This document shows, piece after piece, positions 2,419 through 64,000 of a stretch of 64,000 nt of DNA (position 1 is its first letter; each line of letters begins with the position of its first letter). The stretch spans positions 10,354,001 to 10,418,000 of the forward strand of contig NC_086097.1 in the NCBI RefSeq assembly GCF_963921235.1. The letters run 5' to 3'. This DNA is from Mobula hypostoma. Lineage: Eukaryota. Under the pieces are notes generated by a model that saw nothing but the letters and a program-made list of their open reading frames with translations, had not been told where the DNA came from and made no database searches. The translations under genes and the position numbers were made by a program.

Positions 2419-2505
2419 GCTGGAAGAACTCAGCAGGTCAGGCAGCATCTATGGAAATGAATAAGCAGTCAACGTTTTGGACTGAGACCCTTCATCAGGA
2501 CTGAA
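2415..2505 (-). mobile_element. Penelope-like element tail fragment with decayed hammerhead core
   Basis: Reverse complement resembles the PLE tail at 24115-24210. Confidence 0.8.
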
Positions 2506-5289: not shown

Positions 5290-7055
5290 CTATTGATGCA
5301 GAGGATTTAGTCTTTCACTCCTGACTATCTTGTTTATGAACATAGTCTCTGGAAAGTAAAATTGAAGACCTCAGAGCAGGATTGCTGTACCAGAGGGACA
5401 TCCGAGACTGCTGGGTACTACACACAAAATGCTGGAGGAACTCAGCAGGCCAGGCAGCAACTATCTTTTCCATAGATGCTGCCTGACCTGCTGAATTCCT
5501 CCAGCACTTTGTGAGTATCTGCAGATTTTGTCTTGCTTGTAATTCGAATGCTAGCTGCTCTGCTTTATGGAAACATGGCTTACACCAACAATTTCGGAAG
5601 CAGTGCTGCAGCCTGATGGTGTCATCATTCTCCACAAAGATAGGACAGCTCAGTCTTTTAAAGGCAATGGAGGTGGAGTATACTTTATGATTAACTCAGC
5701 GTGGTGCACAAATGTAGTGGTCCTGCTCATCTAACCTGGAACATCTAGTGGTCAAATGTCATCCATTTCATCTGCCAAGAGAGTTTTCCACCATCATCCT
5801 GGTAGCAATGTACATTCTGCCTCTGCCCAACATCAGGTAGGTACTGGAGGAGCGGGGCAATATAATCAACAGGCACAAACTGCGCACCTTGATGCGTTCT
5901 CTATCATTATGGGAAATTTCGACCAGGCTTGCTTGAAGAAGTCTCTGAACAACTACCATCAACATTTCACCTGTGGAACCTGTGAGGCCAACATACTTGA
6001 TCATTGTTATAGCACCATCAAGAACGTTTTCTGTGCCACCCCATACCCACACTTTGGAAAGTCCGAACACCTGGCTGTACTTCTACTCCTGGCATACAGT
6101 CAGAGATTAAAAACCGCAGTGCCAATAGTGAAGACCAAGAAGAAAGCGGTGGAACACTTACAGGATACCTTTGAAACATCGGACTGGACAATATTTAGGG
6201 ATTCACCTTCGAGTCTGAATGAATACACCTCAGTTGTCACTGGCTTCAAGGTCTGAGTGGGTGAATGTGTACCTTCGAGAACATATTGGACAAACCCAAA
6301 TCTAAAGCCATGGAAGAACAAGGAGATCTGAAGTCTGCTGAGAGCTACAGTGTAGATCTGTGGCATTAAAGACTAGCATTCTAGAAGCATACAAGAAGTC
6401 CAGGTACAACATACGGAAATATATTTTAAGGGAGAAGCACAATTTTCTGATTGAGGTTAGAGATGGAGTCAATTGCACTTCAGCTCTGGCAGGATTTGCA
6501 AACTATTAATTCCTACAAAGTGAAACCTAATATCAAGAATGGCTCTGATGCTTCACTCCCAGAAAAGCTCACTTTCTATGCATGGTTTGAAAGGGTGAAC
6601 GAAACTACACCTATGCAGATCTTTGCAGCATCAGGTGACCCTGTGATTTCTGTCTCGGAAGGAGATGTCAGAACATCTTTCAAGAGGGTGGACCCTCACA
6701 AGGTATCAAGCCATGCTGGTGTACCTGGGAGGGCTCTGAAAGCCTGGGCAAGCCAACTGGCAGGAGTGTTCAAGGACATCTTCAATCTCACTGATGTGGT
6801 CACAGGTTCCCACCTGGTATGAAAGGGCAACAATCATACCTGTGCCCAGAAAGAGCAGGGTGAGCTGCTTCAATGACTCTCACCCAGTGGCATTCACATT
6901 TACTGTGAATACGTGCATTCAGAAGTTGTTCGTGGCTAGAATCAACTCCTCCCTCAGAAAGAACTGCTGCAATTATCTATCACAATAGTCTACAGAAAGT
7001 ACAATGTCACTGGCTTTCCACTTGGCCTTGGATCACCAGGACAACAGTCATACCT
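5290..7055 (+). mobile_element. Degraded Rex/Babar LINE (APE endonuclease and RT N-terminus)
   Basis: ETWL, IMGNFDQ, LDHCYS and GKSEH endonuclease motifs; PVAFT RT-proximal motif; frameshifted; interrupted at about 5420-5555. Confidence 0.8.
5420..5516. repeat. Fold-back inverted repeat made of two Penelope-tail arms
   Basis: 45-nt arms 5420-5464 and 5472-5516, 5 mismatches by eye, 7-nt loop. Confidence 0.9.
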
Positions 7056-8720: not shown

Positions 8721-10062
8721 GGCACCCCAGCGGCCTCAGTGATTACAGACTGGTGGTATTGACCTCCCACATCATGAAGACCCTGGAGAGACTTGTTCTG
8801 GAGCTGCTCCGGCTTATGGTCAGGATACACTTAGATCCCGTCCAGTTCGTCTACCAGCCCCGACTAGGAGTTGAGGATGCCATCTTCTACTGCTGAACCA
8901 TGTCTACGCCCACCTGGACAAGCCAGCGAGCACTGTGAGGGTCATGTTTTTTGACTTCTCCAGTGCGTTCAACACCATCCGCCCTGCTCTGCTGGGGGAG
9001 AAGCTGATAGCGATGCAGGTGGATGCTTTCCTGGTGTCATGGATTCTTGATTACCTGACTGGCAGACCACAGTACGTGTGCTTGCAACACTGTGTGTCGG
9101 ACAGAGTGATCAGCAGCACTGGGGCTCCACAGGGGACTGTCTTGTCTCCCTTTCTCTTCACCATTTACACCTCGGACTTCAATTACTGCACAGAGTCTTG
9201 TCATCTTCAGAAGTTTTCTGATGACTCTGCCATATTTGGATGCATCAGCAAGGGGGATGAGGCTGAGTACAGGGCTACGGTAGGAAACTTTGTCACATGG
9301 TGTGAGCAGAATTATCTGCAGCTTAATGTGAAAAAGACTAAGGAGCTGGTGGTAGACCTGAGGAGAGCTAAGGTACCGGTGACCCCTGTTTCCATCCAGG
9401 GGGTCAGGGTGGACATGGTGGAGGATTACAATTACCTGGGGATACGAATTGACAATAAACTGGACTGGTCAAAGAACACTGAGGCTGTCTACAAGAAGGG
9501 TCAGAGCCGTCTCTATTTCCTGAGGAGACTGAGGTCCTTTAACATCTGCCGGACGATGCTGAGGATGTTCTACGAGTCTGTGGTGGCCAGTGCTATCATG
9601 TTTGCTGTTGTGTGCTGGGGCAGCAGGCTGAGGGTAGCAGACACCAACAGAATCAACAAACTCATTCGTAAGGCCAGTGATGTAGTGGGGATCAAACTGG
9701 ACTCTCTGACGGTGGTGTCTGAAAAGAGGATGCTGTCCAAGCTGCATGCCATCTTGGACAATGTCTCCCATCCACAACATAATGTACTGGTTGGGCACAG
9801 GAGTACATTCAGCCAGAGACTCATTCCACCGAGATGCAACACAGAACGTCATAGGAAGTCATTCCTGCCTGTGGCCATCAAACTTTACAACTCCTCCCTT
9901 GGAGGGTCAGACACCCTGAGCCAATAGGCTGGTCCTGGACTTACTTCCCGGCATAATTTACATATTACTATTTAACTATTTATGGTTTTATTACTATTTA
10001 ATTATTTATGATGCAACTGTAACAAAAAACAATTTCCCCTGGGATCAATAAAATATGACTAT
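8721..10062 (+). mobile_element. Young 5'-truncated Rex/Babar LINE; RT ORF 8935-9927
   Basis: FFDFSSAFNTI, GAPQGTVLSPFLF and KFSDD motifs in a 330-aa open frame; imperfect TSD gaagatgt (8713-8720) / gaaggtgt (10063-10070). Confidence 0.92.
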
Positions 10063-10575: not shown

Positions 10576-12604
10576 TAATCGGCCTCCAGGCTGCAGGACT
10601 GCTTCGATGACGTCGACTGGAATGTCTTCCACGATGAGGATGTCTCCAAGTTCATTGATGGAGTCACGTGCTTAATCCAGAAGTGCACCAACAATGTTGT
10701 CCCCCAGAAGTCAGTCACGGTCTTCCCAAACCAGAAACCCTGGGTTAATTGTTCCGTGTGAGCAGCACTTACAGCGCGACATAGAGCTTACATCGCTGGT
10801 GATCAGCTGGAGCTCAAGAAAAGCAGCTATGGTCTACGCAAAGCTATCAAGGCTGCGAAACAACAATATAGGGAGAAGATTGAGTCAAGATTCACAACGA
10901 ATGCCATATTGTGGTGAGGGCTGCATAACATTGCAGACTTCAAAGCCAAACGTTGTGGTCTCTCTCCCAGATGAGCTCAATCGCTTTTACGTTCGGTTCA
11001 ATGTCACTGTTCCTGAGCCTCCGAGGAAAGCCACCACTACAACCTGCAACCTGGTCATCTCTGAGGCTGAGGTTCGCAGGTGTTTCCAATGAGTGGACAG
11101 TCTCAAGGCTGCGAGACCAGACAGCATCCCAGGGCGAGTACTCAGGATGTGCACAGCACAACTGGTAGGTGTGTTTACTGACATTTTTAATCCATCTCTC
11201 TCCCAGTGTAGAGTTCCCTCCTTCTTCAAATTATCCACCATTGTCCCTGTACCAAAAAAGTCCGAGGTAACATGTCTGAATGACTGGTGTCCTGTTGCAC
11301 TCACCTCAATTATAAACAAATGCTTTGAGAGACTGTTCAAGGATTACATCTGCAGCTTGTTACCACTCAAACTGGACCCCCTAAAATTCGCCTACCGACA
11401 TAACCGATCGACAGATGATGCAATAGCCACAGCCCTACATACCGTCCTTACACATCTGGAGAAGAAGCTTGTTTATGTGAGAATGCTGTTCCTGGACTAC
11501 AGCTCAGCATTCAACACCATAGTTCCATCCAGGCTCAGCAAAAAGCTCAGAGACCTCGGCCTTGACCTTGCCTTGTGCAGCTGGGTCCAGGACTTCCCGT
11601 CAGATCGCCAGCAGGTTGTAAGAGTGGGCTCCCCCACCTCCAACCCTTTGACTCTCAATACAGGAGCCCCTCAGGGCTGCGTACTGAGTCCCCTCCTTTA
11701 CTCCCTCTATAACCATGACTGTATCGCCACCCGCAGCTCTAATCTGCTAATTAAATTTGCGGATGACACTACATTGATTGGCCTTATCTCAAACAATAAT
11801 GAGGTGGCCTATAGGGAAGAAGTCATCTCTCTGACACAGTGGTGTCAAGGAAACAACCTCTCCCTCAATATCACGAAAACAAAGGAGCTGGTTGTGGATT
11901 ACAGGAGGAATGGAGACGAGCTAACCCCTATTGACATCAATAGATCTGGAGTTGAGAGGGTAAACAGCCTTAAGTTCCTTGGCATCCACATCACCGAGGA
12001 CCTCACATGGTCTGTATGCACCAACTGTGTGGTGAAAAGGCACAACAGCACCTCTTTCTCCTCAGACAGTTGAGGAAGTTTGGTATGGGCCCCCAAAACC
12101 TAAGAACTTTCGACAGGGGCACAGTTGAGAGCATCTTGACTGGCTGCATCACTGCCTGGTATGGGAACCGTACCTCCTTTAATCACAGGACTCTGCAGAG
12201 AGTGGTGCAGACAGCCCAGCACATCTGCAGTTGTGAACTTCCCGTGATTCAGGACATTTACAAGGACAGGGGTGTTAAAAGGGCCCATAGGATCACTGGG
12301 GACACAAGCCATCCCAGCCACAATCTATTCCAGCAGATACCATTCAGGAAACGGTACCACAGCATAAAAGCCAGCACCAACAGGATCCGGGACAGCTTCT
12401 TCCACCAGGCCATCAGACTAATTCACTCATGCTGATTTGAGTGAACTCTATATTACATTCACTCTTCTAATTATTATAAATTATTATAAATTACTATGAT
12501 TGCACATGGCACATTTAGATGGAGGCATAACATGAAGATGTTAACTCCTCGTGTATGAAGGATGTAGGAAATAAAGTCAGTTCAGTTCAATTCAATTCAA
12601 TTCA
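10576..12604 (+). mobile_element. 5'-truncated Rex/Babar LINE; RT ORF 11093-12073, frameshifted C-terminus to 12435
   Basis: FLDYSSAFNTI, GAPQGCVLSPLLY and KFADD motifs; (ttcaa)n tail at about 12575-12604. Confidence 0.92.
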
Positions 12605-21260: not shown

Positions 21261-22407
21261 TATGTGCATACAGACTATAACACCATAAGATATTGGAACA
21301 GAATTAGGCCATTTGGCCCATTGAGTCTGCTCTGCCATTTTGCCCTCAGCCCCAATCTCCTGTGTTCCACCAATAAAAAAGGTCTAAAGGTTCATTTTAT
21401 TGTCAAAGTATGCATGTATAATACAACTCTGATATTTGTCTGCTCCAGATAGCCATCATGGGTGTTATTGAAAGAAAAGACAACAACTCCCCCCCAACTG
21501 GTATGGAAAGGAAAGAAACAAAACTCGCAGATCCCAAAATTCACAAGCCCCCCTCACCGCCAGCATAAAACAACCACAGTAACAATCGACGTCCCTCTAC
21601 ACATAACAATCCCCAATTCCTTCATCTGCAGAAAAGAACAGTGACAGTAATAGCAAACTCCCAACACCCTCTGTCACACAGAAAAAAACTAACAGGTCAC
21701 CCATCCACCAGTCGAACACAAGAAAACACCAAAAAACTGAAGGAAGCCAATATAAAGTACAGTCCAATAATCACATAAATCTCAGAATATGGGAAACGTC
21801 TTTCCACTGCATATGTAGAGAAGAGCTGCAAGAACTCAGTCCTTCTGTAAAGAGTGATCGCCAACCCAGGTCGAATGCGCTGATCAGGGGTCGAACGCCA
21901 CCGATCTGATGGTACTTGTGCAAGAAACTTCAAGGTCATCTGTTCATCTGCAACTTCAAGGTCATCTGTTGATCTGCACCTGTGAGTGCTTTATCAGTGC
22001 GATCACTACTGGGAAATATAGAGTGAGAGTCAATGGTTATTCCCTTGAGTGATGACTCCTAATCTGATCTTGCAGAGATTTTGAAAAGCATTATGAGTCT
22101 CATTGGCTTACTGTGATGCAGCTAAGCTTAATAAAAATATGCCTTTGAATCATTAACGGCATTAACTGATCTGAGGTGTGCTATATTCTGGTGCTCAGGA
22201 ATTTGCTTTATGCACAATAATGCCATCTATTAATGAAGCCATTCAAAGGGTATATTCATCTTGTATAAACAGTCACCTAAATGCTTTCAGTTTTTGAGAA
22301 GAGAACATTGAAACTAGAGAATCGATGAACATTCTCATATTTTTTTACATTAAAGAGCAAGTGAAGCAAAATCCTATTTTAAGTCAAGATTTTGAGTATT
22401 TTGAGTA

Positions 22408-24211
22408 CGCTCTTAAACTTTTCTATGATTTTAAGTTCCCAGGCCCACACCGCTTTATTTTCACCATGGATGTCCAGTCCCTATATACTTCCATCCCCCA
22501 TCAGTAAGGTCTCAAAGCTCTACACTTCTTTTTGGATTCCAGACCTAATCAGTTCCCCTCTACCACCACTCTGCTCCGTCTAGCGGAATTAGTCCTTACT
22601 CTTAATAATTTCTCCTTTGGCTCCTCCCACTTCCTCCAAACTAAAGGTGTAGCTATAGGCACCCGTATGGGTCCTAGCTATGCCTACTTTTTTGTTGGCT
22701 TTGTGAAACAATCTATGTTCCGTGCCTATTCTGGTATCTGTCTCCCACTTTTCCTTCGCTACATCGACGACTGCATTGGCGCTGCTTCCTGCACGCATGC
22801 AGAGCTCGTTGACTTTATTAACTTTGCCTCCAACTTTCACCCTGCCCTCAAGTTTACCTGGTCCATTTCCGACACCTCCCTCCCCTTTCTAGATCTTTCT
22901 GTCTCTGTCTCGGGAGACAGCTTATCTACTGATGTCTACTATAAGCCTACTGACTCTCACAGCTATCTGGACTATTCCTCTTCTCACCCTGTCTCTTGCA
23001 AAAACGCCATCCCCTTCTCGCAATTCCTCCATCTCCGCCGCATCTGCTTTCAGGATGAGGCTTTTCATTCCAGGACGAGGGAGATGTCTTCCTTTTTTAA
23101 AGAAAGGGGCTTCCCTTCCTCCACTATCAACTCTGCTCTTAAACACATCTCTCCCATTTCACGTACATCTGCTCTCACTCCATCCTCCCACCACCCCGCT
23201 AGGAATAGGGTTCCCCTGGTCCTCACCTACCACCCCACCGGCCTCCGGGTCCAACATATTATTCTCCGTAACTTCCGCCACCTCCAACGGGATCCCACCA
23301 CTAAGCACATCTTTCCCTCCCCCCCCCTCTGCATTCCGCAGGGATCGCTCCCTACGCAACTCCCTTGTCCATTCGTCCCCCCCATCCCTCCCCACTGATC
23401 TCCCTGCTGGCACTTATCCGTGTAAGCGGAACAAGTGCTACACATGCCCTTACACTTCCTCCCTTACCACCATTCAGGGCCCCAAACAGTCCTTCCAGGT
23501 GAGGCAAAACTTCACCTGTGAGTCGGCTGGGGTGATATACTGCGTCCGGTGCTCCCGATGTGGCCTTTTATATATTGGCGAGACCCGACGCAGACTGGGA
23601 GACCGCTTTGCTGAACACCTACGCTCTGTCTGCTAGAGAAAGCAGGATCTCCCAGTGGCCATACATTTTAATTCCACATCCCATTCCCATTCTGACATGT
23701 CTATCCACGGCCTTCTCTACTGTAAAGATGAAGCCACACTCAGGTTGGAGGAACAACACCTTATATTCCGTCTGGGTAGCCTCCAACCTGATGGCATGAA
23801 CATCGACTTCTCTAACTTCCGCTAATGCCTCACCTCCCCCTCATACCCCATTAGTTATTTATTTTTATACACACATTCTTTCTCTCACTCTCCTTTTTCT
23901 CCCTCTGTCCCTCTGACTATACCCCTTGCCTATCCTCTGGGCCCCCCCACCCCTTGTCTTTCTTCCCAGACCTCCTGTCCTATGATCCTCTCTTATCCCT
24001 TTTGCCTATCACCTGTCCAGCTCTTGGCTCCATCCCTCCCCCTCCTGTCTTCTCCTATCATTTTGGATCTCCCCCTCCCCCTCCAACTTTCAAATCCCTT
24101 ACTCACTCTTCCTTCAGTTAGTCCTGACGAAGGGTCTCTGCCTGAAACGTCGACTGTACCTCTTCCTAGAGATGCTGCCTGGCCTGCTGCATTCACCAGC
24201 AACTTTTATGT
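22408..24211 (+). mobile_element. 5'-truncated Penelope-like element (Neptune-type): RT, Cys linker, GIY-YIG endonuclease and tail
   Basis: QTKGVAIGTRMGP and FLRYIDDC RT motifs; CKRNKCYTC linker; GVIYCVRCSRCGLLYIGET; frameshift at poly-C about 23320; flanking 12-bp direct repeat gtattttgagta (22396-22407, 24212-24223). Confidence 0.93.
24120..24155 (+). ncRNA. Minimal type-I hammerhead ribozyme motif in Penelope tail
   Basis: agtc-CTGACGA-agggtctctgcct-GAAA-cg-TC-gact: stem I agtc/gact, core boxes intact, GUC cleavage triplet. Confidence 0.8.
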
Positions 24212-25357
24212 GTATTTTGAGTATGTGCTTTGTTACAAGGATTTACTCCTTAATAACAAGGATCAGAGAGGTATAGGGAGAATCTGTGTTTACTGACAAC
24301 TAACTTTATTGCCTGAACTGAAGAGTATGTGAATCTACACAACCCAATACCTGTGTGCACATCTGCTACTTTTTCCTTACCTTCCATGAACAAAGAATAG
24401 ACAAGGTAATAGCCAAGAGAAGAGTCTACGCTGGCCAGATGTCCGCTGTGGTACTGATCTAATCTCCACCTGTCCCCACCCGAGATCGTTGGTCTCTGGA
24501 GGGTTGGTGCTGCTTTATCTTTTTATCTGCTGTCATCTTCTTTCCTTACCAGTTCAAATGCTGCATTTCAGTGTCATTGGCTATGGTCATCTGACTGACC
24601 TATAACACCTTCTCCTTGGATATACTTCAAGGGTGACACAACTTCATGCCTGAGGTGACTTCTTTTGTTCTCTTTGACTGGTCCAAACCAGTCAAACCGC
24701 ATCACTCAGAGACTGGGCCAAAATAACAAGATTACTTCTGAAAACCTGCCATTCTACAAAATACACAGCTTCTCTGAGAATGATCTCAGGCTTAGCAGGT
24801 CGATAACAGAAACTTCTTGTGTTCAGATTCAATTGTTCTGATTAGATTATCCCGGAGCAAGAATCAGATCTCAATCATTTCACAAAATGGAGGTTACAGA
24901 GCAGCTTCACAAAATGGCGACCTCCGTTCCTTCAAGCACATTGCAAGATAAAAGGCAATTGGTTTGCTTACTTCCACTGAACTTGATTCATTCAAATTCA
25001 CTGTTTTGTGGACTGTAATTCTTTCTCCCAACAGTCTAAAGGCTCAAATTTACTCAAGCTATTTTCAAATCAAAATTGAATAACAAGTAATTATAGATTA
25101 TAGATAATAATAGGGTGACACTATTACAGCTCAGAGCAATGGAGTTCAGAATTTGTACATTCTTCCTATGACCACAGATTCCTCCAGATACTGTGATTTC
25201 CTCCCACAGACCAAAGACGTACTGGTTAGTAGGTTAATTAGTCATTGTAAACTGCCCTGTGATTTGATTTGGCTTGGATTAAATAGGTGGGTTTCTGGAT
25301 GATGCAACACAATGGGCCGGAAGGACCTGTTCCACGCTGTATCTCTAAATCAACAAG

Positions 25358-25976: not shown

Positions 25977-26510
25977 GAGGTATTGATTATAACATTGGCT
26001 CCTCCAAACCGTCTGTATAGAGGGATTGATTATAACAATGGTTACCTCAAACCATCTCTACAGAGGGATTGATTATAACAATGGTTACCTCAAACCGTCT
26101 CTATAGAGGGATTGATTATAACAATGGTTACCTCAAACCGTCTCTATAGAGGGATTGATTATAACAATGGTTACCTCAAACTGTCTCTATAGAGGGATTG
26201 ATTATAACAATGGTTACCTCAAACTGTCTCTATAGAGGGATTGATTATAACAATGGTTACCTCAAACTGTCTCTATAGAGGGATTGATTATAACATTGGC
26301 TCCTCCAAACTGTCTCTATAGAGGGATCGATTATAACAATGGATACCTCAACCCCTCTCTATAGAGGGATTGATTATAACAATGGTTACCTCAAACCATC
26401 TCTATAGAGGGATTGATTATAACAATACTTCCCTCAAACCATCTCTAGTATGGGAATTATTATAACTTTAGTTCACCCAAATCATCTCTAGTGAGGGACT
26501 GATTATCAAA
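25977..26510. repeat. 43-bp minisatellite, about 12.4 units (continues at 33419-33484)
   Basis: Consensus gagggattgattataacaatggttacctcaaaccgtctctata; unit starts at 25977, 26020, 26063 and so on to 26493. Confidence 0.97.
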
Positions 26511-26888
26511 TTTCAACTAATTATCAGAGTAAATACATGTCACCACATACAACCCTGAGATCCTTTTTCTGTGGGCATACTTAGCAAATCTATAAAACAG
26601 TAACTGTAAACAGAATCAATTGACAATAAACTGTGCAAATGCAAATATGTTGATTGGCCTAATCTCAAATAATAACGATACAGCCTACAGAGAAGAAGTC
26701 ATCTCTCTGACACAGTGGTGTCAAGAAAACAACCCCTCCCTTGATGTCGCAAAAACAAAGGAGCTGGTTGTGGACTACAGGAGGAACAGGGACAGTCTCA
26801 CTCCTATTGACATCAATGGAACTGGAGTTGACAGGGTAAGCAGCTTTAAGTTGCTCGTCACTGAGGATCTCACGTGGTCTGTACATAC

Positions 26889-29800
26889 ATGACATTGTGT
26901 ACATACGGTGACATTGTGGCCATCTCTGAAACTTGGCTGCTAGCTCTGAAGGATGGCTGCTATTGGGAGGTGAACGTCCAAGGATATACGTTGAATCGGA
27001 AAGATAGGTTAGTTGGCAGAGGGGGTGGTGTGGCCCTGTGTGTAAGAAATAATATTAAATCACTGGAAAGAGATGACATAGGATGAGAAGTTCTAGAGTG
27101 TCTATGGGTTGAGTTAAAAAATGGCAAGGGTAAAAGGACCCTAGTGGCAGTTGTACACAGGCCTCCAAACAGCAGCCGGGATGTGGATTACAGATTATAG
27201 CAGGAGATAGAAAAGGCATATCAGAAAAGCAATGTCATGATAATCATTGGAGATTTTAACATGAAAGTGGATTGGGAAAACCAGGCCAGTACTGGATCTC
27301 AAGAGAGAGAATTTGCAGAATGTCTAAGGGATGGCTTTTTAGAACAGCTTGTTGTTGAGCCTATGAGGGGATCAGCTGTGCTGAATTGGGTGCTGTGCAA
27401 TGATCCGGAGGTGATAAGAGAGCTTAAGGTTAAGGAACCCTTAGGGAACAGTGATCACAATATGATTGAGTTCACTTTGAAATTAGAGAAGGAAAAAATA
27501 AAATCTAATGTGTCAGTATTTCAGTGGAATAAAGGAAATTACAATGGCATGAGGGAAACTGACCAAAGTCGACTGGAACGGGATATTTGCAGGAAGGACA
27601 GCAGAGCAGCAATGGCTGAAGTTTCTGTGAAAAATGACAGAAGGGCAAGACAGATATATTCCAAATAAGAAGAAATTTTCAAAGGGAAGACACTACCGTG
27701 TCTGACAAGTGAAGACAGAGCCAAAGTAAAAGCAAAGAGAGGGCATACAAGGAAGCCAGAACTAGTGGGAAGATAGAGGACTGGGGAGCTTTTAAAAACT
27801 TGCAGAAGGAAACTAAGAGGGTCATTCAGAAGGTAAAGATGAATTATGAGAGGAAACTGGCGACTAACATCAAAGAAGATACTAAAAGCTTTTTTAAGTA
27901 TATAAAGGGTAAAAGAGAGTCGAGGGTAGATATAAGACCAATACAAAATGACGCTGGAGATATTGTAATGAGAGATGCAGAGATGGCAGAGGAACCAAAA
28001 GCGTATTTTTCATCAGTCTTCACGGTGGAAGATGTCTGCAGTATAGAAACATAGAAACATAGAAAATAGGTGCAGGAGTAGGCTATTCGGCCCTTCGAGC
28101 CTGCACCACCATTTATTATGATCATGGCTGATCATCCAACTCAGAACCCCGCCCCAGCCTTCCCTCCATACCCCCTGACCCCCATAGCCACAAGGGCCAT
28201 ATCTAACTCCCTCTTAAACATAGCCAATGAACTGGCCTCAACAGTTTCCTGTGGCAGAGAATTCCAAAGATTCACCACTCTCTGTGTGAAGAAGTTTTTC
28301 CTAATCTCGGTCCTAAAAGGCTTCCCCTCTATCCTCAAACTGTGAGCCCTCGTTCTGGACTTCCCCAACATCGGGAACAATCTTCCTGCATCTAGCCTGT
28401 CCAATCCCTTTAGGATCTAATACGTTTCAATCAGATCCCCCCTCAATCTTCTAAATTCCAACGAGTACAAGCCCAGTTCATCCAGTCTTTCTTCATATGA
28501 AAGTCCTGCCATCCCAGGAATCAATCTGGTGAACCTTCTTTGTACTCCCTCTATGGCAAAGATGTCTTTCCTCAGATTAGGGGACCAAAACTGCACACAA
28601 TACTCCAGGTGTGGTCTCACCAAGGCCTTGTACAACTGCAGTAGTACCTCCCTGCTCCTGTACTCGAATCCTCTCGCTATAAATGCCAGCATACCATTCG
28701 CCTTTTTCACCGCCTGCTGTACCTGCATGCCCACTTTCAATGACTGGTGTATAATGACACCCAGGTCTCGTTGCACCTCCCCTTTTCCTAATTGGCCACC
28801 ATTCAGATAATAATCTGTTTTCCTATTTTTGCCACCAAAGTGGATAACTTCACATTTATCCACATTAAATTGCATCTGCCATGAGTTTGCCCACTCACCC
28901 AACCTATCCAAGTCACCCTGCATCCTCTTAGCATCCTCCTCACTGCTAACACTGCCACCCAGCTTCGTGTCATCCGCAAACTTGGAGATGCTGCATTTAA
29001 TTCCCTCATCCAAGTCATTAATATATATTGTAAACAACTGGGGTCCCAGCACTGAGCCTTGCGGTACCCCACTACTCACCGCCTGCCATTCTGAAAAGGT
29101 CCCGTTTATTCCCACTCTTTGCTTCCTGTCTGCTAACCAATTCTCCACCCACACCAATACCTTACCCCCAATACCGTGTGCTTTAAGTTTCCACACTAAT
29201 CTCCTGTGTGGGACCTTGTCAAAAGCCTTTTGAAAATCCAAATATACTACATCCACTGGTTCTCCCCTATCCACTCTACTAGTTACATCCTCAAAAAATT
29301 CTATGAGATTCGTCAGACATGATTTTCCTTTCACAAATCCATGCTGACTTTGTCCGATCATTTCACTGCTTTCCAAATGTGCTGTTATCACATCCTTGAT
29401 AACTGACTCCAGCAGTTTCTCCACCACCGACGTTAGGCTAACCGGTCTATAATACCCCGGTTTCTCTCTCCCTCCTTTTTTAAAAAGTGGGGTTACATTA
29501 GCCACCCTCCAATCCTGATATACTGGACATTCAAGAGTGTCAGGGAAGTGAGGTTTGTGCAGTGAAAATTACAATTGAGAAGGTGCTCAGGAAGCTTAAT
29601 GATATGCGGGTGGATAAATCTCCTGGACCTGATGGAATGCACCCTTGGGTTCTAAAGGACGTAGCTGCAGAGATTGCGGAGGTGTTAACGATGATCTTTC
29701 AAGAATTGATAGATTCTGGCATTGTACCGGATGACTGGAAAATTGCAAATGTTACTCCACTATTTAAGAAGGGTGGGAGGCAGCAGAAAGGAAACTATAG

Positions 29801-31176
29801 ACCCGTTACCCTGACATCAGTGGTTGGGAAGTTGTTGGAATCGATTTTTAGGGATGAGATTACAGCATACCTGGAGGCAGATGACAAGATAGGCCAAAGC
29901 CAGCATGGTTTCCTGAAAGGAAAATCCTGCCTGATTAACCTACTGCAATTCTTTGAGAAAATTACAAATAGGGTAGACAAAGGAGATGCAGTAGACATAG
30001 TGTACTTGGATTTTCAGCGGATCTTTGACAATGTGCTGCACCTGAGGCTGCTTTGCAAGATAAGAGCCCATGGAAATACTGGGAAGTTACTAGCATGGGT
30101 GGAGCATTGGCTAGTCGGCAGAAAACAGAGAGTGTGTATAAAGGGATCCTATTCTGGCTGGCTGCCGGTTACCAGTGGAGTTCCTCAGAGGTTGGTGTTG
30201 GGACCATTACTTTTTACGATGTATGTCAATGACTTGGACTACAGTATTAAGGGATTTGTGGCTAAATTTACCGATGATACAAAGATAGGTGGAGGAGCGG
30301 GTAATGTTGAGGAAACAAAGAGCCTGCAGAGAGACTTAGATAGTTTAGGGGAATGGGCAAAAAAGTGGCAAATGAAATACAATGTTGGAAAGTGTCTGGT
30401 CATGCACTTTGGTGGAAGAAATAAATGGGCAGACTATTATTTAGATGGGGAGGGAATTCAAAATACAGAGATGCAAAAGGACTTGGAAGTCATTGTGCAA
30501 GATACCCTAAAGGTTAACCTGCAGGTTGAGTCGGTTGTGAATGCTGGCATTCATTTGTAGAGGTATAGAATATAAGAACCAGGATATGATGTTGAGGTTC
30601 TATAAGGCACTCGTGAGACCACGCTTGGAGTATTGTGTGCAGTTTTGGGCTCCTTATTTTAGAAAAGATATACTGACATTGGAGAGGGTTCAGAGAATGA
30701 TTCCAGGAATGAGAGGGTTACTGTATGAGGAACGTCTGGCAGCTCTTGGACTGTATTCCCTGGAGTTCAGGAGAATAAGGGGGAATCTCATAGAAACATT
30801 CCAAATGTTAAAAGGCCTGAACAGATTAGATATGCAAAGTTATTTCCCATGGTAGGGGATTTTAGAACAAGAGGGCACAACTTCAGGATTGAAGGACGTC
30901 CTTTTAGAACTGAGATGCGGAGAAATTACTTTAGTCAGAAGGTGGTAAATCTGTGGAATTTCTTGCCACAAGCGGCTGTGGAGGCCAAGTCATTGGGTGT
31001 ATTTAAGGCAGAGATGGATAGGTTCTTGATTAGCCAGGGCATGAAAGTGTATGGGGTGAAAGCAGGGGAGTGGGGATGACTGGATGAAGTGGATCAGCCC
31101 ATGATTGAATGGCGGAGCAGGCTCGATGGGCCGAATTGCCTACTTCTGCCCGTAAATATTATGGTCTTATGGTCTT
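26889..31176 (+). mobile_element. CR1 LINE C, near full ORF2 (26889-28045 and 29519-31176), degraded
   Basis: ISETWL, GDFN and SDHN endonuclease motifs; RT ORF 29562-30560 (LDFQ, KFTDD); (ttatggtc)n tail. Confidence 0.92.
28046..29518 (-). mobile_element. Young 5'-truncated CR1 LINE D; RT ORF 28417-29505
   Basis: [22 protein letters not shown] and KFADD in a 362-aa open frame; (tttctatg)n tail; junction duplication tata. Confidence 0.95.
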
Positions 31177-33418
31177 ATACCAGTTGTGTGGTGAAAAAAG
31201 CATAACGGTGCCTCTTTCACCTCAGATGGTTGAAGAAGTTTGGTATGGGTCCCCAAATCCGAAGGACTTTCTACAGGGGCACAATTGGAAGCATCCTGAC
31301 TGGCTGCATCACTGCCTGGTATGGGAACTGTACTTCCCTCAATCACAGGACTCTGCAGGGAGTGGTGTGGATGGCTCAGCGCATCTGTAGATGTGAAGTT
31401 CCCACTATTCAGGATATTTACAAAGATAGGTCTGTAAAAAGGGCCTGAAGGATCACTGGGGACCCGAGTCACCCCAACGACAAACTGTTCCAGCTGCTAC
31501 CATCCAGGAAACGGTACCACAGCATAAAAGCCAGGACCAACAGGCTCCGGGACAGCTTCTTCCATCAGGGCATCGGACTGGTTAATTCACACTAATAAAA
31601 TTATATTTCTATGTTATATTGACTGTCCTGTTGTATATACTATTTATTACAAATTACTATAAGTTTCACATTGCACATTTAGACAGAGACATAACATAAA
31701 GATTTTTACTCTTCATGTATGTGAAGGATGTAAGAAATAAAGGCAATTCCATAAATAAGTAGCAATAAATAATGGGCATGAAATAACAAAATAAAGAGCT
31801 CTTAAAGTGAGACCATTGGCTGTGGGAACACTGGTAGAAAGAGTGTTCAACAGCCTGATGGTTCAGGGTTAGTTACTGTTCATGAACTTGGTAATGTGAG
31901 TCCTGAGTCACTTGTACCTTCTACCTGATGATAACAGCGAGAAAAGATCATGGCCTGGGTGGAGAGGACCTTTGATGATGGATGCTGCTTTCCTATGATA
32001 GCGTTTCATGTAGATGTGGTCTATGGTTGGGAGGGTATTACCCATCATGTACAGGGCCAAATCCACTACCTTTTGTAGTATTTTCTGCTTAAAGGCATTG
32101 GTGTGATGCAGCTGGTCAGCACACTTGCCACCACAGATCTAGAGATGTTTGTCAAGTTATTTGATGTCACACCTTATCTCTGCAGACTCCTGAGGAAGTA
32201 GAGGCGCTGTTGTGCTTTCTTTGCAGTTATGTTTAGACAATGGGTCTGGGACAGGTCCTCTGAGATAGCAACACCCAGGAATTTAAAGTTACTCATCCGC
32301 TCCACCTCTGATCCTCTGGCTCTTGGACCTCTGGCTTCCCTCTTCTGAGGCCTGCAATCATCTCCTTGGCCTTATTGACACAGAGTGCGAGGCTGTTGTT
32401 ATTACACCTCTCAGGTGAATTTTCAATCTCCCTCCTGCATGCTGATTCATCATGACTTTTGATGCAGCCCCCAACAATGGTGTGATCAGCCAACTTGGAT
32501 ATGGTGTTGAAGATGTACTTTCCACACAGTCATAGGTGTAAAGTGAGCACAGCAGGAAGCTAAGCACACATCCGCGGGTGCTCCTGTGCTGATTGCTGAT
32601 GGAGATTGTGGAGGGGATGTTATTGACAATCCTAACTGACTGGGGTCTACAAGTAAGGAAATCCAGAATCCAATTGCATAAAGGGAGTATTGAGTCCCAG
32701 GTTTTGGAGTTTATTGATTAGTTTTGAGGGAATGATGGTATTAAATGCTGAACTATAATCGATAAAAGAGCATCCTGATGTATGCACCTTTGCTGTCCAG
32801 ATGTTCCAGAGTTGTGTAAAGAGCCAATAACATGGTATCTGTTGTGGACCTATTGACTCAATAAGCAAATTGGAGCGGATCCAAGTCGCCACTCAGACCA
32901 GAGCTAATATGCTTCAATACCAGCCTCACAAAACACTTTGTCATTGTGGATGTTAAGTGCCACAGGATGATAGTCATTGAGACAGGAAGCAATGCTCTTC
33001 TTGAGCACCGATATGATTGAAGCCTGCTTGAAGCAGCTGGGTACCAGAACGAGAGGTTAAAGATATCTGTGAATACACCACCAGCTGGTTGGCACAGGTC
33101 TTCAGTCCTTGCCCTGGTCCTTTGTCCGGACTGGATGCTTTCCTTGGTTTCACTCTCTTGAAGGAAGTCCACATGTCATCTTCAGATACTGATACCAAAC
33201 GATTATTGGGAGACATGGGGGTACACGATAGTTCCTTTCTGTTCTGGTGGTCAATGTGAGCCTTGAAGGCATTGAGCTTACCTGGAAGCAAAGCTCTGCT
33301 GTCCTCTATGTCACAAGATTTAACTTTGTAGGAGGTTATGCTATTTAAAGCCTGCCACAACTATCGAGCGACTCTAATTGATTCCGGTCTAGCCTGGAAT
33401 CTTCACTTCATCCTAGAG

Positions 33419-34185: not shown

Positions 34186-36040
34186 AAGGTTTGGAGGCAT
34201 GTGTTCCTCAGTAACCCAGACAGCCATGTTGGCTGGAGTCAGGGCTTTGTGCTTTGGCTCTTGGTGGGGTCATCCTGGCCAAACAGGTCAAATGTTAGAG
34301 GCCAGGCCAAGGGTGGTTCACCGTTCCTCTAGGTTCAGAGGTTCTGCTCATGGCTAACATAGAAACATAGAAACATAGAAAATAGGTGCAGGAGTAGGCC
34401 ATTCGGCCCTTCGAGCCTGCACCGCCATTTATTATGATCATGGCTGATCATCCAACTCAGAACCCCACCCCAGCCTTCCCTCCATACCCCCTGACCCCTG
34501 TAGCCACAAGGGCCATATCTAACTCCCTCTTAAACATAGCCAATGAACTGGCCTCAACAGTTTCCTGTGGCAGAGAATTCCACAGATTCACCACTCTCTG
34601 TGTGAAGAAGTTCTTCCTAATCTCGGTCCTAAAAGGCTTCCCCTCTATCCTCAAACTGTGAACTCCCGTTCTGGACCTCCCCAACATCAGGAACAATCTT
34701 CCTGCATCTAGCCTGTCCAATCCCTTTAGGATCTTATACGTTTCAATCAGATCCCCCCTCAATCTTCTAAATTCCAATGAGTACAAGCTCAGTTCATCCA
34801 GTCTTTCTTCATATGAAAGACCTGCCATCCCAGGAATCAATCTGGTGAACCTTCTTTGTACTCCCTCTATGGCAAAGATGTCTTTCCTCAGATTAGGGGA
34901 CCAAAACTGCACACAATACTCCAGGTGTGGTCTCACCAAGGCCTTGTACAACTGCAGTAGTACCTCCCTGCTCCTGTACTCGAATCCTCTCGCTATAAAT
35001 GCCAGCATACCATTCGCCTTTTTCACCGCCTGCTGTACCTGCATGCCCACTTTCAATGACTGGTGTATAATGACACCCAGGTCTCGTTGCACCTCCCCGT
35101 TTCCTAATCAGCCACCATTCAGATAATAATCTGTTTTCCTATTTTTGCCACCAAAGTGGATAACTTCACATTTATCCACATTAAATTGCATCTGCCATGA
35201 GTTTGCTCACTCACCCAACCTATCCAAGTCACCCTGCATCCTCTTAGCATCCTCCTCACTGCTAACACTGCCACCCAGCTTCGTGTCATCCGCAAACTTG
35301 GAGATGCTGCATTTAATTCCCTCATCCAAGTCAGTAATATATATTGTAAACAACTGGGGTCCCAGCACTGAGCCTTGCGGTACCCCACTAGTTACCGCCT
35401 GCCATTCTGAAAAGGTCCCGTTTATTCCCACTCTTTGCTTCCTGTCTGCTAACCAATTCTCCACCCACGCCAATACCTTACCCCCAATACCGTGTGCTTT
35501 AAGTTTCCACACTAATCTCCTGTGTGGGACCTTGTCAAAAGCCTTTTGAAAATCCAAATATACTACATCCACTGGTTCTCCCCTATCCACTCTACTAGTT
35601 ACATCCTCAAAAAATTCTATGAGATTCGTCAGACATGATTTTCCTTTCACAAATCCATGCTGACTTTGTCCGATCATTTCACCGCTTTCCAAATGTGCTG
35701 TTATCACATCCTTGATAACTGACTCCAGCAGTTTCCCCACCACCGACGTTAGGCTAACCGGCCTATAATTCCCCGGTTTCTCTCTCCCTCCTTTTTTAAA
35801 AAGTGGGGTTACATTAGCCACCCTCCAATCCTCAGGAACTAGTCCAGAATCTAACGAGTTTTGAAAAATTATCACTAATGCATCCACTATTTCTTGGGCT
35901 ACTTCCTTAAGCACTCTTGGATACAGACCTGACTGGTCAAAGAAAAGGTTATGGAAACAGTAATGAAGATTACCTCTATATGGACAGACAGAGATGGAGG
36001 ACCTTCATTGCTGCCCTAAATGCCAGTGGCATAAAAGGCA
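34186..36040 (+). mobile_element. RTE-derived bipartite element split by CR1 (34186-34355 and 35925-36040)
   Basis: Halves join as 'ggctaac|agacctgactggt', matching 7915-7940 and 45995-46015. Confidence 0.7.
34356..35924 (-). mobile_element. Young 5'-truncated CR1 LINE, near-identical to 28046-29518
   Basis: ORFs 35207-35914 and 34457-35092 are in one frame, broken by premature stops. Confidence 0.95.
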
Positions 36041-44433: not shown

Positions 44434-45644
44434 CTAAGATTCCATTCCAGAATTACCATTCCAGGACATTAACTTTGTTGTTTTTAAGCTATTCATGTTT
44501 AGCTTTGGCTTTATACTTGGGGTTGTTGTCTTGCTGGAAAACAAATCTCCCAAGTACCAGTTTTCTTGCCGATTGCATCGCATTTTCCTCCAGGATTTCC
44601 CTGTATTTTGCTTCATTCATTTTACCCTCTACTTTCACAAACCTTCCAGGGCCTGCTGCAGTGAAGCATCCCCACAGCATGATGCAGCCAGTGCCATGCT
44701 TCACGATAGGGACACTGTGTTTTTGATGATGTGCGGTGTTTGGCCTACATCAAACATAGCATTTAGTCCGATGGCAAATAATTTCAATTTTGCTTTCATC
44801 AGACCATAGGACCTTCTGGCTGACTTCAGAATCTCCAACATGCCTTTTGGCAAACTCTAGCCAAGATTTCATGTGAGTTATTTTCAACAGTGGCTTTCTC
44901 TTTACCAGTTTCCCATGAAGATATAACTGGTGAAGCACCCAGACAACAGTTGTTGTAGGTGCACTCTCTCCCATCTCAGCCACAGAAGCTCGTAGCCTCT
45001 CCAGTGTTGTCATAGGTCTCTTAGTGGTCTTCCTCATTAATCCCCATCTTGCACTGTCACTCAGTTTTTGAGGATAGCCTGTTCTAGGCAGATTTACAGC
45101 TGTGCTATGTTGTTTCCATTTTTTGATGATTCACTTAGCTGTACTCCAAGGGATAATTAGTGACTTGGAAATTTTCTTGTATCCATCTCCTGATTTGTGC
45201 TTTTCAATAACCTTTTCACAGAGTTGTTTGGAGTGTCCTTTTGTCTTCATGGTGTAGTTTTTGCCAGCATACTGACCCACCAACAGTTGGACCTTCCTGA
45301 TACAGGGGTATTTTTACTACAATCAGTAGAAACACCTTGACTGCACACAGGTCTCCAAAAACAGATCTCAATTTAACTAATTATGTAACTTCTAAAACCA
45401 ATTAACTGCACCAGTGATGATTTAGTCTGAAAGGGGTGAATACTTACACAATCAATTATTTTGTGTTTTATATTTGTAATTAATTTAAATAATTTTGTAG
45501 AGATTTGTTTTCACTTTGACACAAAAAGTCTTTATCCGTTGATCAGTGGCAAAAAGGCCAAATTAAATAGATTGTGATTCAATGTTGTAAAACAATAAAA
45601 CATGAAAACTTCCAGGGAGGGGTGAATACTTTTTATAGGCACTA
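44434..45644 (-). mobile_element. Tc1-family DNA transposon, 3'-truncated, with decayed DDE transposase
   Basis: VLWSDESKI, KHGTGCIMLWGCF and FQQDNNPK motifs; terminal repeat ggggtgaatactttttataggcacta followed by TA; inner direct repeat at about 45433. Confidence 0.9.
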
Positions 45645-47799: not shown

Positions 47800-48570
47800 T
47801 TTCTTGAGTAATGTGGGCCTGTTCACCTGCACAGTATATGTTAATTATTGTCTTATTAAATCATTAAACACTTGCCCTTTCTGTTTAATCCTGTTAAGTT
47901 TATTTTGACTGATACGGGTTTTCCGCACTTTGTGTTTATTTAATGTGGACTCCTTATTAGTGTTTTTGCCAGTCCTTGTGTTTTGAGAATGATTCACCTC
48001 ACCTCAGTGTCGCTCAGTTAAGCCACTGATGTTCTGTTGGAATTCCAATGAATAAAAAAAATACTAGAAATACTGAAGATGCTGGTAATCCAAAGCAACA
48101 CACACAAAATGCTGGAGGACCTCAGCAGTTAGAAGTGTATAGGGACAGGAGATCTGTAGTGAAAATGAAACAACCGGGGCCAGGGAACTTGAAGTCATTG
48201 AAAAGGTCGAGAGCGTGTGAACTTCCACAGATGTAGGTAGGAAGGGACTGTACTGGCGGTATAAAATAGAGTCAAGGTATGCAAACACAAGTTCTGTGGG
48301 ACAGGAGCAAGCAGAAATAATGAATCTACCTGGACAGTCAGTTTTGTGGGAACTGAGAGATGTGGGGTAAGGGAACTATGAGGTTGGTGACAGTGGATAG
48401 GAGATACCCGGAGTCGATGAGGTCGGTGATGGTGTGGGAGAGAACAGAAGCTGAGTTCCTCCAGATTTTTGAGCGTGTGTCTATGAATAAACTCTTATTT
48501 GTGACTCTACACAGGAACCTGTCATTCCTTCACACCGGGGTTCAGTCGTCTGTCAGCGCTTGCCATGACA
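47800..48570 (+). mobile_element. Solo LTR (interrupted at 48057-48482) inside a Rex/Babar 3' UTR
   Basis: TSD catta (47795-47799, 48571-48575); ends ...catgaca; homologous to 49045-49422. Confidence 0.7.
48057..48482 (-). mobile_element. Penelope-like fragment with inverted tail ends
   Basis: Middle is the reverse complement of PLE RT (compare 63210-63390); flanking duplication atgaataaa. Confidence 0.75.
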
Positions 48571-50860: not shown

Positions 50861-50985
50861 CGAGTGTTGCTCCTCCACCCTGAGGAAACCCCATCATGGC
50901 ACAAGAGGATATTAGAGACTGACATGTCAGAAGGGGGAATGGGAATGGGAAGTTAAAAATTTAGCCACCGGGAAGTTCTGCATTT
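50860..50985 (-). mobile_element. Penelope GIY-YIG C-terminal fragment
   Basis: Reverse complement resembles 23640-23760. Confidence 0.6.
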
Positions 50986-56694: not shown

Positions 56695-56845
56695 AGAGTA
56701 AACAACAGGAATTCTGCAGATGCTGGAAATTCAAGCAACATACATCAAAGTTGCTGGTGAACGCAGCAGGCCAAGCAGCATCTATAGGAAGAGGCGCAGT
56801 CAACGTTTCAGGCCGAGACCCTTCGTCAGGACTAACTGAAAGAAG
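56695..56845 (-). mobile_element. Penelope tail fragment, same family as 22408-24211
   Basis: Reverse complement nearly identical to 24110-24212. Confidence 0.88.
56798..56833 (-). ncRNA. Minimal type-I hammerhead ribozyme motif
   Basis: Minus strand reads agtc-CTGACGA-agggtctcggcct-GAAA-cg-TT-gact; GUU triplet. Confidence 0.75.
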
Positions 56846-62894: not shown

Positions 62895-64000
62895 CAACGT
62901 TCCAACCTTACTCCTTCCGAACGCTCTGCTCTCCACTCCCTCTGCACTAATCCTAACCTTACTATTAAACCCGCCGATAAGGGGGGTGCTATTGTAGTCT
63001 GGCTTACTGACCTCTACCTTGCCGAGGCACAGCGACAACTCGCGGATACCTCCTCTTATTTACTGCTCGGTCGTGATCCCACGAAGGAGCACCAGGCCAT
63101 TGTCTCCCACACCATCAGCAACTTTATCCGCTCAGGGGATCTCCCATCCACTGCTACCAACCTTATAGTTCCCACACCCCGCACTTCCCGTTTCTACCTC
63201 CTACCCAAGATCCACAAACCTGCCTGTCCTGGCCGACCTATTGTCTCAGCTTGCTCCTGCCCCACCAAACTCGTTTCTGCATACCTCGACACGGTTTTAT
63301 CCCCCCTTGTTCAATCCCTTCCTACCTATGTTCGTGACACTTCTCACGCTCTTAAGCTTTTCGATAATTTTAAGTTCCCTGGCCCCCACTGCTTTATTTT
63401 CACCATGGATGTCCAGTCCCTATATACTTGATCCCCCATCAGGAAGGTCTCAAAGCTCTCCGTTTCTTTTTGGATTCCAGACCTAATGAGTTCCCCTCTA
63501 TCACCACTCTGCTCTGTCTCGCGGAATTAGTCCTTACTCTTAATAATTTCTCCTTTGGCTCCTCCCACTTCCTCCAAACTAAAGGTGTAGCTATGGGCAC
63601 CCGTATGGGTCCTAGCTATGCCTGCCTTTTTGTTGGGTTTGTGGAACAATCTGTGTTCCAAACTTATTCTGATATCCATCCCCCACTTTTCCTTCGCTAC
63701 ATCGACGACTGCATTGGCGCTGCTTCCTGCACGCGTGCTGAGCTCGTTGACTTTATTAACTTTGCCTCCAACTTTCACCCTGCCCACAAGTTTACCTGGT
63801 CCATTTCCAACACCTCCCTCCCCTTTCTAGATCTTTCTGTCTCTATCTCGGGAGACAGCTTATCCACTGATGTCTACTATAAGCCTACGGACTCTCACAG
63901 CTATCTGGACTATTCCTGTTCTCACCCTGTCTCTTGCAAAAATGCCAAACCCTTCTCGCAATTCCTCTGTCTCTGCCGCATCTGCTCTCAGGATGAGGCT
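62895..64000 (+). mobile_element. Penelope-like element (Neptune-type) RT region, runs off window end
   Basis: KPADKGG, LPKIHK, GRPIVS and MDVQSLYT motifs; 63345-64000 is highly similar to 22408-23060; disrupted near 63430. Confidence 0.93.

Follow-up and report, generated by a model that had tools for sequence, protein, structure and literature searches.

Introduction

Minimal hammerhead ribozymes (min-HHRs) are found in the pseudo-LTRs (pLTRs) of metazoan Penelope-like elements (PLEs). The published min-HHR monomers do not cut, and the dimers cut weakly (PMC4209133). Dimer cleavage by PLE-associated hammerheads is also described in PMC5785218, as summarised in PMC6765202. In the anole, cutting by the PLE hammerhead requires the protein of the element; the hammerhead is dispensable for insertion in vitro, and RNA-seq revealed no ends at its site (PMC11167929). 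The in vivo role of PLE hammerheads is presented as an open question in the texts of PMC4209133, PMC8557442, and PMC11167929, and the locus analyzed here does not settle it.

We analyzed a hammerhead motif at position 24120 of a 64,000-nucleotide stretch of Mobula hypostoma contig NC_086097.1 (the window). At a probability of about 0.75, we read it as a genuine minimal type-I hammerhead of a PLE pLTR that is dimer- or protein-gated and would matter, if at all, in tandem source transcripts.

Base-by-base reading of the hammerhead

On the plus strand, 24119–24156 was read base by base as a minimal type-I hammerhead, with the 36-base motif at 24120–24155. The 5' strand of stem I (U-AGUC, 24119–24123) pairs with the 3' strand (GACU-G, 24152–24156). 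Helix I thus has 5 bp, four Watson–Crick pairs and one U·G extension (24119/24156). The core C3-U4-G5-A6-C7-G8-A9 (CTGACGA, 24124–24130) is followed by an extra A between A9 and 10.1 (24131), which is typical of PLE min-HHRs (PMC4209133). Sequence and folding gave a stem II of 4 bp (GGGU/GCCU, 24132–24143) with a CUCU loop and the closing pair G10.1·U11.1 (24132/24143). The second core segment, G12-A13-A14-A15.1 (GAAA, 24144–24147), is followed by CG and UC. The palindrome ACGU (24147–24150) stands in place of helix III and would serve as the dimer interface. By hammerhead numbering, cleavage is predicted after C17 (GUC/G, 24151/24152).

The positions that a preliminary description had assigned to stem I, CTGACGA, stem II, GAAA, ACGT, and GUC each agreed with the sequence. 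The same description called the ribozyme intact, which holds for the catalytic core; stem II, however, is closed by G·U, and compared with the commonest form its loop has G>T at 24139. The dimer-type architecture that it proposed, with a palindrome for stem III, was supported.

The core CUGANGA...GAAA...UH, the type-I topology, a helix I of 4–5 bp, and helix II are all present in the 24120 copy, as are the palindromic 15.2–16.2 without helix III and the extra nucleotide 9/10.1. The G10.1-C11.1 pair is absent from this copy and its subfamily, which have G·U, and present in an older form of the same element. We take the pair as a usual rather than a defining feature, and would place the element family with the metazoan PLE min-HHRs and the 24120 copy there as a wobble variant.

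The element carrying the motif

The motif lies in a 5'-truncated EN+ PLE at 22407–24216 of the plus strand, which contains RT, Zn-linker, and GIY-YIG coding regions, a 3' UTR, the hammerhead, and a tail hairpin. Its closest copies are 93–97% identical. The ORF (22409–23825, plus strand) is broken by a stop at ~22505, a frameshift in a C-run near 23320, and a stop at 23634. It encodes YIDD (RT), a CKRNKCYTC linker, and the endonuclease motif YIGETRR..FAEH. Pfam returned GIY-YIG (PF01541) with E = 6e-4 and 20.5 bits, below the 22.6 cut-off, and no match for the RT part. In the ESM Atlas, the ORF matched PF26215 (0.97)/RVT_1 clusters. A 12-bp target-site-like duplication, GTATTTTGAGTA, flanks the element on the plus strand. 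Its left copy is at 22396–22407 and its right copy at 24212–24223, where the element ends at the first (+62) 3' end.

The hammerhead is located ~300 nt downstream of the ORF stop, in the 3' pLTR. The family shows the features of EN+ PLEs: RT together with a GIY-YIG endonuclease at the C terminus in a single ORF, pLTRs in partial tandem, inverted 5' copies, and an optional tail of 30–40 nt. The linker CKRNKCYTC (CX4CxxC) agrees with the CX2-5CxxC linker between RT and EN by which Neptune and Nematis are defined in PMC8557442. On this motif, rather than on an RT tree, the element would be Neptune-type. Non-LTR retrozymes are recognized as ORF-less tandem arrays with one hammerhead per unit; here, a single motif was found in an ORF-bearing element. 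Sequence, descriptor matches, and element context together supported the proposed identity as the minimal hammerhead of a PLE pLTR. The CpG decay and the LINE content of the sequence would fit a non-mammalian vertebrate.

An upstream walk through the copies gave a near-full-length set of 19 non-self plus-strand matches among the 40 listed. In 10 of the 19 loci, the 3' end of one unit (EN end, UTR, hammerhead, and tail) ran seamlessly into the 5' end of the next unit. In these 10 loci, a motif of the same sense thus precedes the ORF, whose likely ATG follows the cleavage site by 139 nt. The other nine started downstream of the site or were inverted, and none of the 19 began at the site. The motif thus occurs both after the ORF and before the likely start codon in tandem copies, indicating that the source transcript carries two same-sense motifs flanking the ORF.

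Cleavage by the flanking hammerheads and ligation could yield a circular RNA that serves as an obligatory template and explains the variable partial tandems, as in the model of PMC4209133. The upstream pLTR portions do vary in length among the near-full-length loci and are seamless through the site in the 10 tandem loci, and RT starts internally with no need for a free 3' end (PMC11167929). However, the genomic pattern would look no different with uncut multimeric transcripts, insertion in vitro persists in hammerhead mutants of the anole element (PMC11167929), and the most amplified subfamily of the present family has a weakened stem II (-1.8 vs -3.7 kcal/mol). We consider an obligatory circle possible but rather unlikely.

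Insertion ends and junctions

The 3' ends of 95 motif copies were mapped. Forty-six ended 62–74 nt past the site and 33 ended 99–112 nt past it; nine read through, and seven ended elsewhere. This set required a matching 45-nt downstream stretch and a 150-nt flank, and it is blind to ends at the site. In an unbiased set selected by the endonuclease region, 27 of 28 copies reached the tail end and none stopped at the site. The two clusters match the two RT start sites and the 'tail' described for the anole PLE, where internal initiation by RT accounts for them (PMC11167929).

At the 5' junctions with foreign upstream bases, 321 copies began at the site, whereas the control offsets +2, -4, and -1 had 136, 123, and 49. 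The first 20 site junctions on contig C1 were inspected. Seventeen joined inverted or rearranged element sequence (five via stem I and five via stem II), three were small changes in continuous copies, and none joined unique DNA. A comparable 4-nt class at offset -4 was as frequent (~60–80 vs ~80), and nine of the ten checked were such junctions. The excess is explained by microhomology, and a contribution from cleavage is not needed. The copy ends have no cleavage footprint.

In loci L098–L131 (contigs C1, C2, and C5), fold-back inversion junctions recurred on the self-complementary stretches of the hammerhead, namely stem I, stem II, and the core with the palindrome. From these sequences, the hammerhead hairpin looks like a template-switch hot spot.

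Sequence retention among copies

The motif was compared with two older copies. Its identity was 0.78 in one, where the UTR scored 0.46 and 0.61, and 0.81 in the other, where the UTR scored 0.56 and 0.66. Eight of nine divergent copies retained 10–11 of the 11 core bases, and across subfamilies every core position was preserved, together with the palindrome and the additional A. One old copy (L045) aligned poorly (0.73) and kept 7 of 11 core bases. Across the three oldest copies, the tail hairpin (24170–24205) matched the hammerhead in conservation (0.75–0.83), indicating that conservation does not single out catalysis.

Contigs of other subfamilies were compared with the locus in four of the 22 listed runs. 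They diverged just before 24120 in all four runs (56, 53, 9, and 37 contigs); in two of these runs, divergence also set in directly past 24157. No covariation was seen in stems I and III, which barely vary.

Decay after insertion was analyzed with single CpG changes on the same background, which affected 4.5–7.4% of copies per site: 2,950 for C7T, 1,795 for G8A, 2,202 for C15.2T, 2,479 for G16.2A, and 1,870 for C17T. The lethal G8A and the tolerated control C17T share the same trinucleotide context and did not differ (p = 0.22). The palindrome decayed nearly symmetrically (C15.2T vs G16.2A). Selection on the palindrome among inserted copies, a candidate raised by a small sample (8 vs 2), was ruled out by these genome-wide counts. 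The CpG change rate depends on context, ACG versus TCG. The excess of C7T over G8A probably comes from this difference; the C17T control fits this explanation but does not prove it. Inserted copies decay neutrally, the catalytic G8 included, and after insertion neither loss nor retention of the motif shows a trace of selection.

Abundance of the wobble variant

Whole-genome exact counts on both strands gave 72,368 motifs of this design with intact core, palindrome, and stems, or one per 48 kb of the 3.48-Gb genome, whose assembly comprises 200 contigs. The reversed-pattern controls were all 0. The very large genomic load of ribozyme motifs that had been predicted from the window was therefore borne out. 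Only 15 of 32 endonuclease-selected copies kept the core, palindrome, and stem I (copies with fewer than 100 of 121 ungapped matches were left out), indicating that relics are more numerous than the intact motifs.

As exact copies, the G·U form (39,897) outnumbered the G-C form (6,207). Position 11.1 was U in all 32 endonuclease-selected copies. In-place CpG decay of the G-C form was rejected as the origin of U11.1, as it predicts ~280–460 G·U copies, far too few for the number counted. The wobble was thus inherited from source elements. The G-C form looked older: 9 of 23 were exact vs 59 of 77 for the G·U form (by-eye tally over the first 100 places listed, p = 0.002), and the G-C loci were 80–94% identical to the 24120 copy vs 93–97% for its closest copies. 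In the contigs of runs X1, X2, X9, and X17, both U11.1 and C11.1 forms occurred at 24143 in all four coded organisms. The C11.1 share of the summed depth, which is no measure of copy number, ranged from ~20% to 70% across these runs.

The change from G-C to G·U raised the computed stem II energy from -3.7 to about -1.8 to -2 kcal/mol. G10.1-C11.1 is described as the most conserved pair outside the core, and a natural U-U variant is known whose mispair supports some cleavage (PMC3088659). In the active-site framework of PMC6961537, a wobble at 10.1/11.1 is allowed if G10.1 stays. By comparison with these systems, the G·U ribozyme is likely weakened, not dead.

The motif could instead be catalytically vestigial here and persist because it serves the pLTR in protein binding or as a promoter/5' UTR element. 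The equal conservation of the neighboring tail hairpin, the amplification that was not hindered by the loss of G10.1-C11.1, and the lack of a cleavage footprint fit this proposal, as does the success of PLE clades without canonical hammerheads (PMC8557442). On the other side are the retention of core, extra A, and palindrome across subfamilies described above, the preserved G10.1 with its permitted wobble (PMC6961537), and the partly active U-U mismatch (PMC3088659). We regard a vestigial role as unlikely. Both this proposal and the circular template concern the role of the motif in source elements, and they overlap partly with our preferred reading of a dimer- or protein-gated hammerhead.

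A more speculative idea is that the G·U subfamily swept the genome because a damped, protein-gated ribozyme spares its template. Once expressed, the protein of the element could then activate cutting at thousands among the 72,000 core-intact motifs, those in host transcripts included. We hold this to be very unlikely.

Prospects for cleavage of host transcripts

The best fold of the monomer was a rod in which G5-A6-C7-G8 paired with C15.2-G16.2-U16.1-C17 (-10.8 vs -6.8 kcal/mol for the hammerhead-like fold). The fold z-scores were not significant (-1.18 to 0.18). A double hammerhead is beyond what ViennaRNA can model; for two strands, it returned an extended duplex as the optimum. A lone monomer would thus be expected from the modeled fold to adopt an inactive rod.

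Pairs of motifs were counted for contig C1, using its first 100 core-intact motifs and a distance limit of 5 kb. Same-sense pairs numbered 4 vs 6.4 at random, whereas diverging inverted pairs numbered 12 vs 3.2, which exceeds the 99th percentile. Were an inverted pair transcribed by read-through, the motif would end up hidden inside a long duplex.

The preliminary description had inferred that host pre-mRNA could be cut when two same-sense copies, dispersed in host transcription units, pair with each other, imposing a genome-wide ribozyme load. The number of core-intact motifs favors this, and about 8 in 100 motifs have a same-sense neighbor within 5 kb, which would amount to thousands of loci when extrapolated from four pairs. 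Xenopus tandem retrozymes were also reported to be depleted from introns (bioRxiv 10.64898/2026.07.22.740005). However, same-sense pairs were not above random and inverted pairs dominated, the lethal G8A was neither enriched nor depleted, and the activity described in print is either low or dependent on protein. For the 24120 copy, the closest core of the same sense that was found is ~41 kb away, 1,076 nt past the window end. A scan of 35 of the 55 long ORFs in the window, a test that introns fall outside, gave only LINE and transposase matches and one sub-threshold match, and no host exon. The claim was not upheld, and we judge such cutting highly improbable.

Remaining cores and chance expectation

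Five cores of two designs had been reported for the window. Descriptor, similarity, and tail-anchored scans found two intact cores and one dead core, all of one design; a second design outside the descriptors used is beyond the reach of these scans. The three cores are at 24124 (plus strand), 56829 (minus strand, GUU site), and 2498 (minus strand, G12>A, dead). The second intact copy (56797–56833, minus strand) has a G·U stem II and lies in a tail-only insertion of about 106 nt. The dead copy (2466–2502, minus strand) belongs to an older subfamily and has C11.1. No second plus-strand core was found inside the window. Another copy of the same PLE is present at 62900–64000 of the plus strand, and its hammerhead lies beyond the window end. 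A 99-nt inverted pair (fold-back) of element tails without a hammerhead core is present at 5419–5517.

The window also contains other repeats. Older Penelope-like fragments, 72–76% identical to the young family, are at 48132–48444 and 50921–50984 (both minus strand). A tandem repeat of ~86-bp period occupies 25977–26512 (~6 copies, 80–88% alike). Two LINE RT copies at 28043–29516 and 34359–35832 (minus strand) are 98% identical, and an older plus-strand relative is at 29502–31180. Long LINE RT frames matching RVT_1 are at 8875–9927 and 11093–12073 (plus strand), the first also matching ALKBH8_N. A Tc1/mariner-type transposase fragment is at 44750–45130 (minus strand; PF01498, E = 4.8e-12).

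The strict full descriptor gave two matches in the window and none in all 40 first-order shuffles. The 31-mer with up to 3 mismatches also gave two matches vs 0.00 expected. The bare CTGANGA..GAAA core gave 11 matches vs 7.15 expected in the window, which was not significant, and the remaining nine failed the stem descriptors. In Rfam, nothing in the window reached the gathering threshold, and a search of 23900–24400 at E ≤ 10 gave no hammerhead family; such silence would be expected for motifs without helix III. A minus-strand Rfam match to PrrB_RsmZ was treated as chance (19 bits vs 44). Chance resemblance to a hammerhead is hardly credible: the bare core pattern is common and Rfam has no hammerhead match, but the full descriptor was absent from the 40 shuffles, and a PLE pLTR is just where the literature places such motifs.

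Discussion

A genuine, dimer- or protein-gated hammerhead of a PLE pLTR remains our preferred reading. In this model, the motif would have been copied passively into tens of thousands of dead PLE insertions. Activity would depend on pairing of the ACGU palindrome with another copy, on the RT-EN protein of the element being bound, or on both, and any cutting would thus be confined to source-element RNPs and be weak or late. Once translation is over, such cutting may serve to trim, circularise, or silence the transcript; insertion ends would not be defined by it. The 24120 copy itself is most likely an inert passenger of a broken element.

The motif itself will be no surprise to a specialist. 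Its class is already published, to which the copy number and the wobble sweep add modestly. Our literature search found no report of this PLE family or of the G·U subfamily, although Lunse 2017 or the supplement of PMC4209133 may show such variants. The family offers a clean natural variant pair, an older G-C form and a younger G·U form ~6 times more numerous as exact copies, and its tens of thousands of copies suit a sense/antisense intron comparison.

Among the described systems, the present motif resembles the metazoan PLE min-HHRs of PMC4209133 in its type-I core, helix I of 4–5 bp, extra base 9/10.1, palindromic 15.2–16.2, and pLTR position. Solitary copies from truncated elements also predominate in both, and opposite-strand pairs 100–700 bp apart occur in both. 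A difference is that helix II has 4 bp here and 7–8 bp there, and that the dominant subfamily has G10.1·U11.1 in place of the 'highly conserved' G-C. The copy number is ~8 times that of the largest genome described there (about 9,000 in Xenopus, the other large figure being ~4,000), in a comparison between differing descriptors. Compared by description only, the short palindromic stem III is like that of the dimer-cleaving PLE hammerheads (Lunse, Weinberg and Breaker 2017, PMC5785218, via PMC6765202).

Animal non-LTR retrozymes (bioRxiv 10.64898/2026.07.22.740005) likewise have type-I hammerheads derived from PLE pLTRs. They are ORF-less head-to-tail tandem arrays, whereas here a truncated PLE with an ORF carries just one motif, in its tail.

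Similar to the anole Poseidon PAc (Frangieh et al. 2024, PMC11167929), the family is a vertebrate EN+ PLE with partial tandems, no ends at the cleavage site, and two RT start sites giving an optional tail of 30–40 nt. Unlike in PAc, the likely start codon is not overlapped by the motif but follows 139 nt downstream of it, and the linker is Neptune-like rather than Poseidon-like. Protein-assisted cutting was shown for PAc (PMC11167929) and is a possibility for the family described here.
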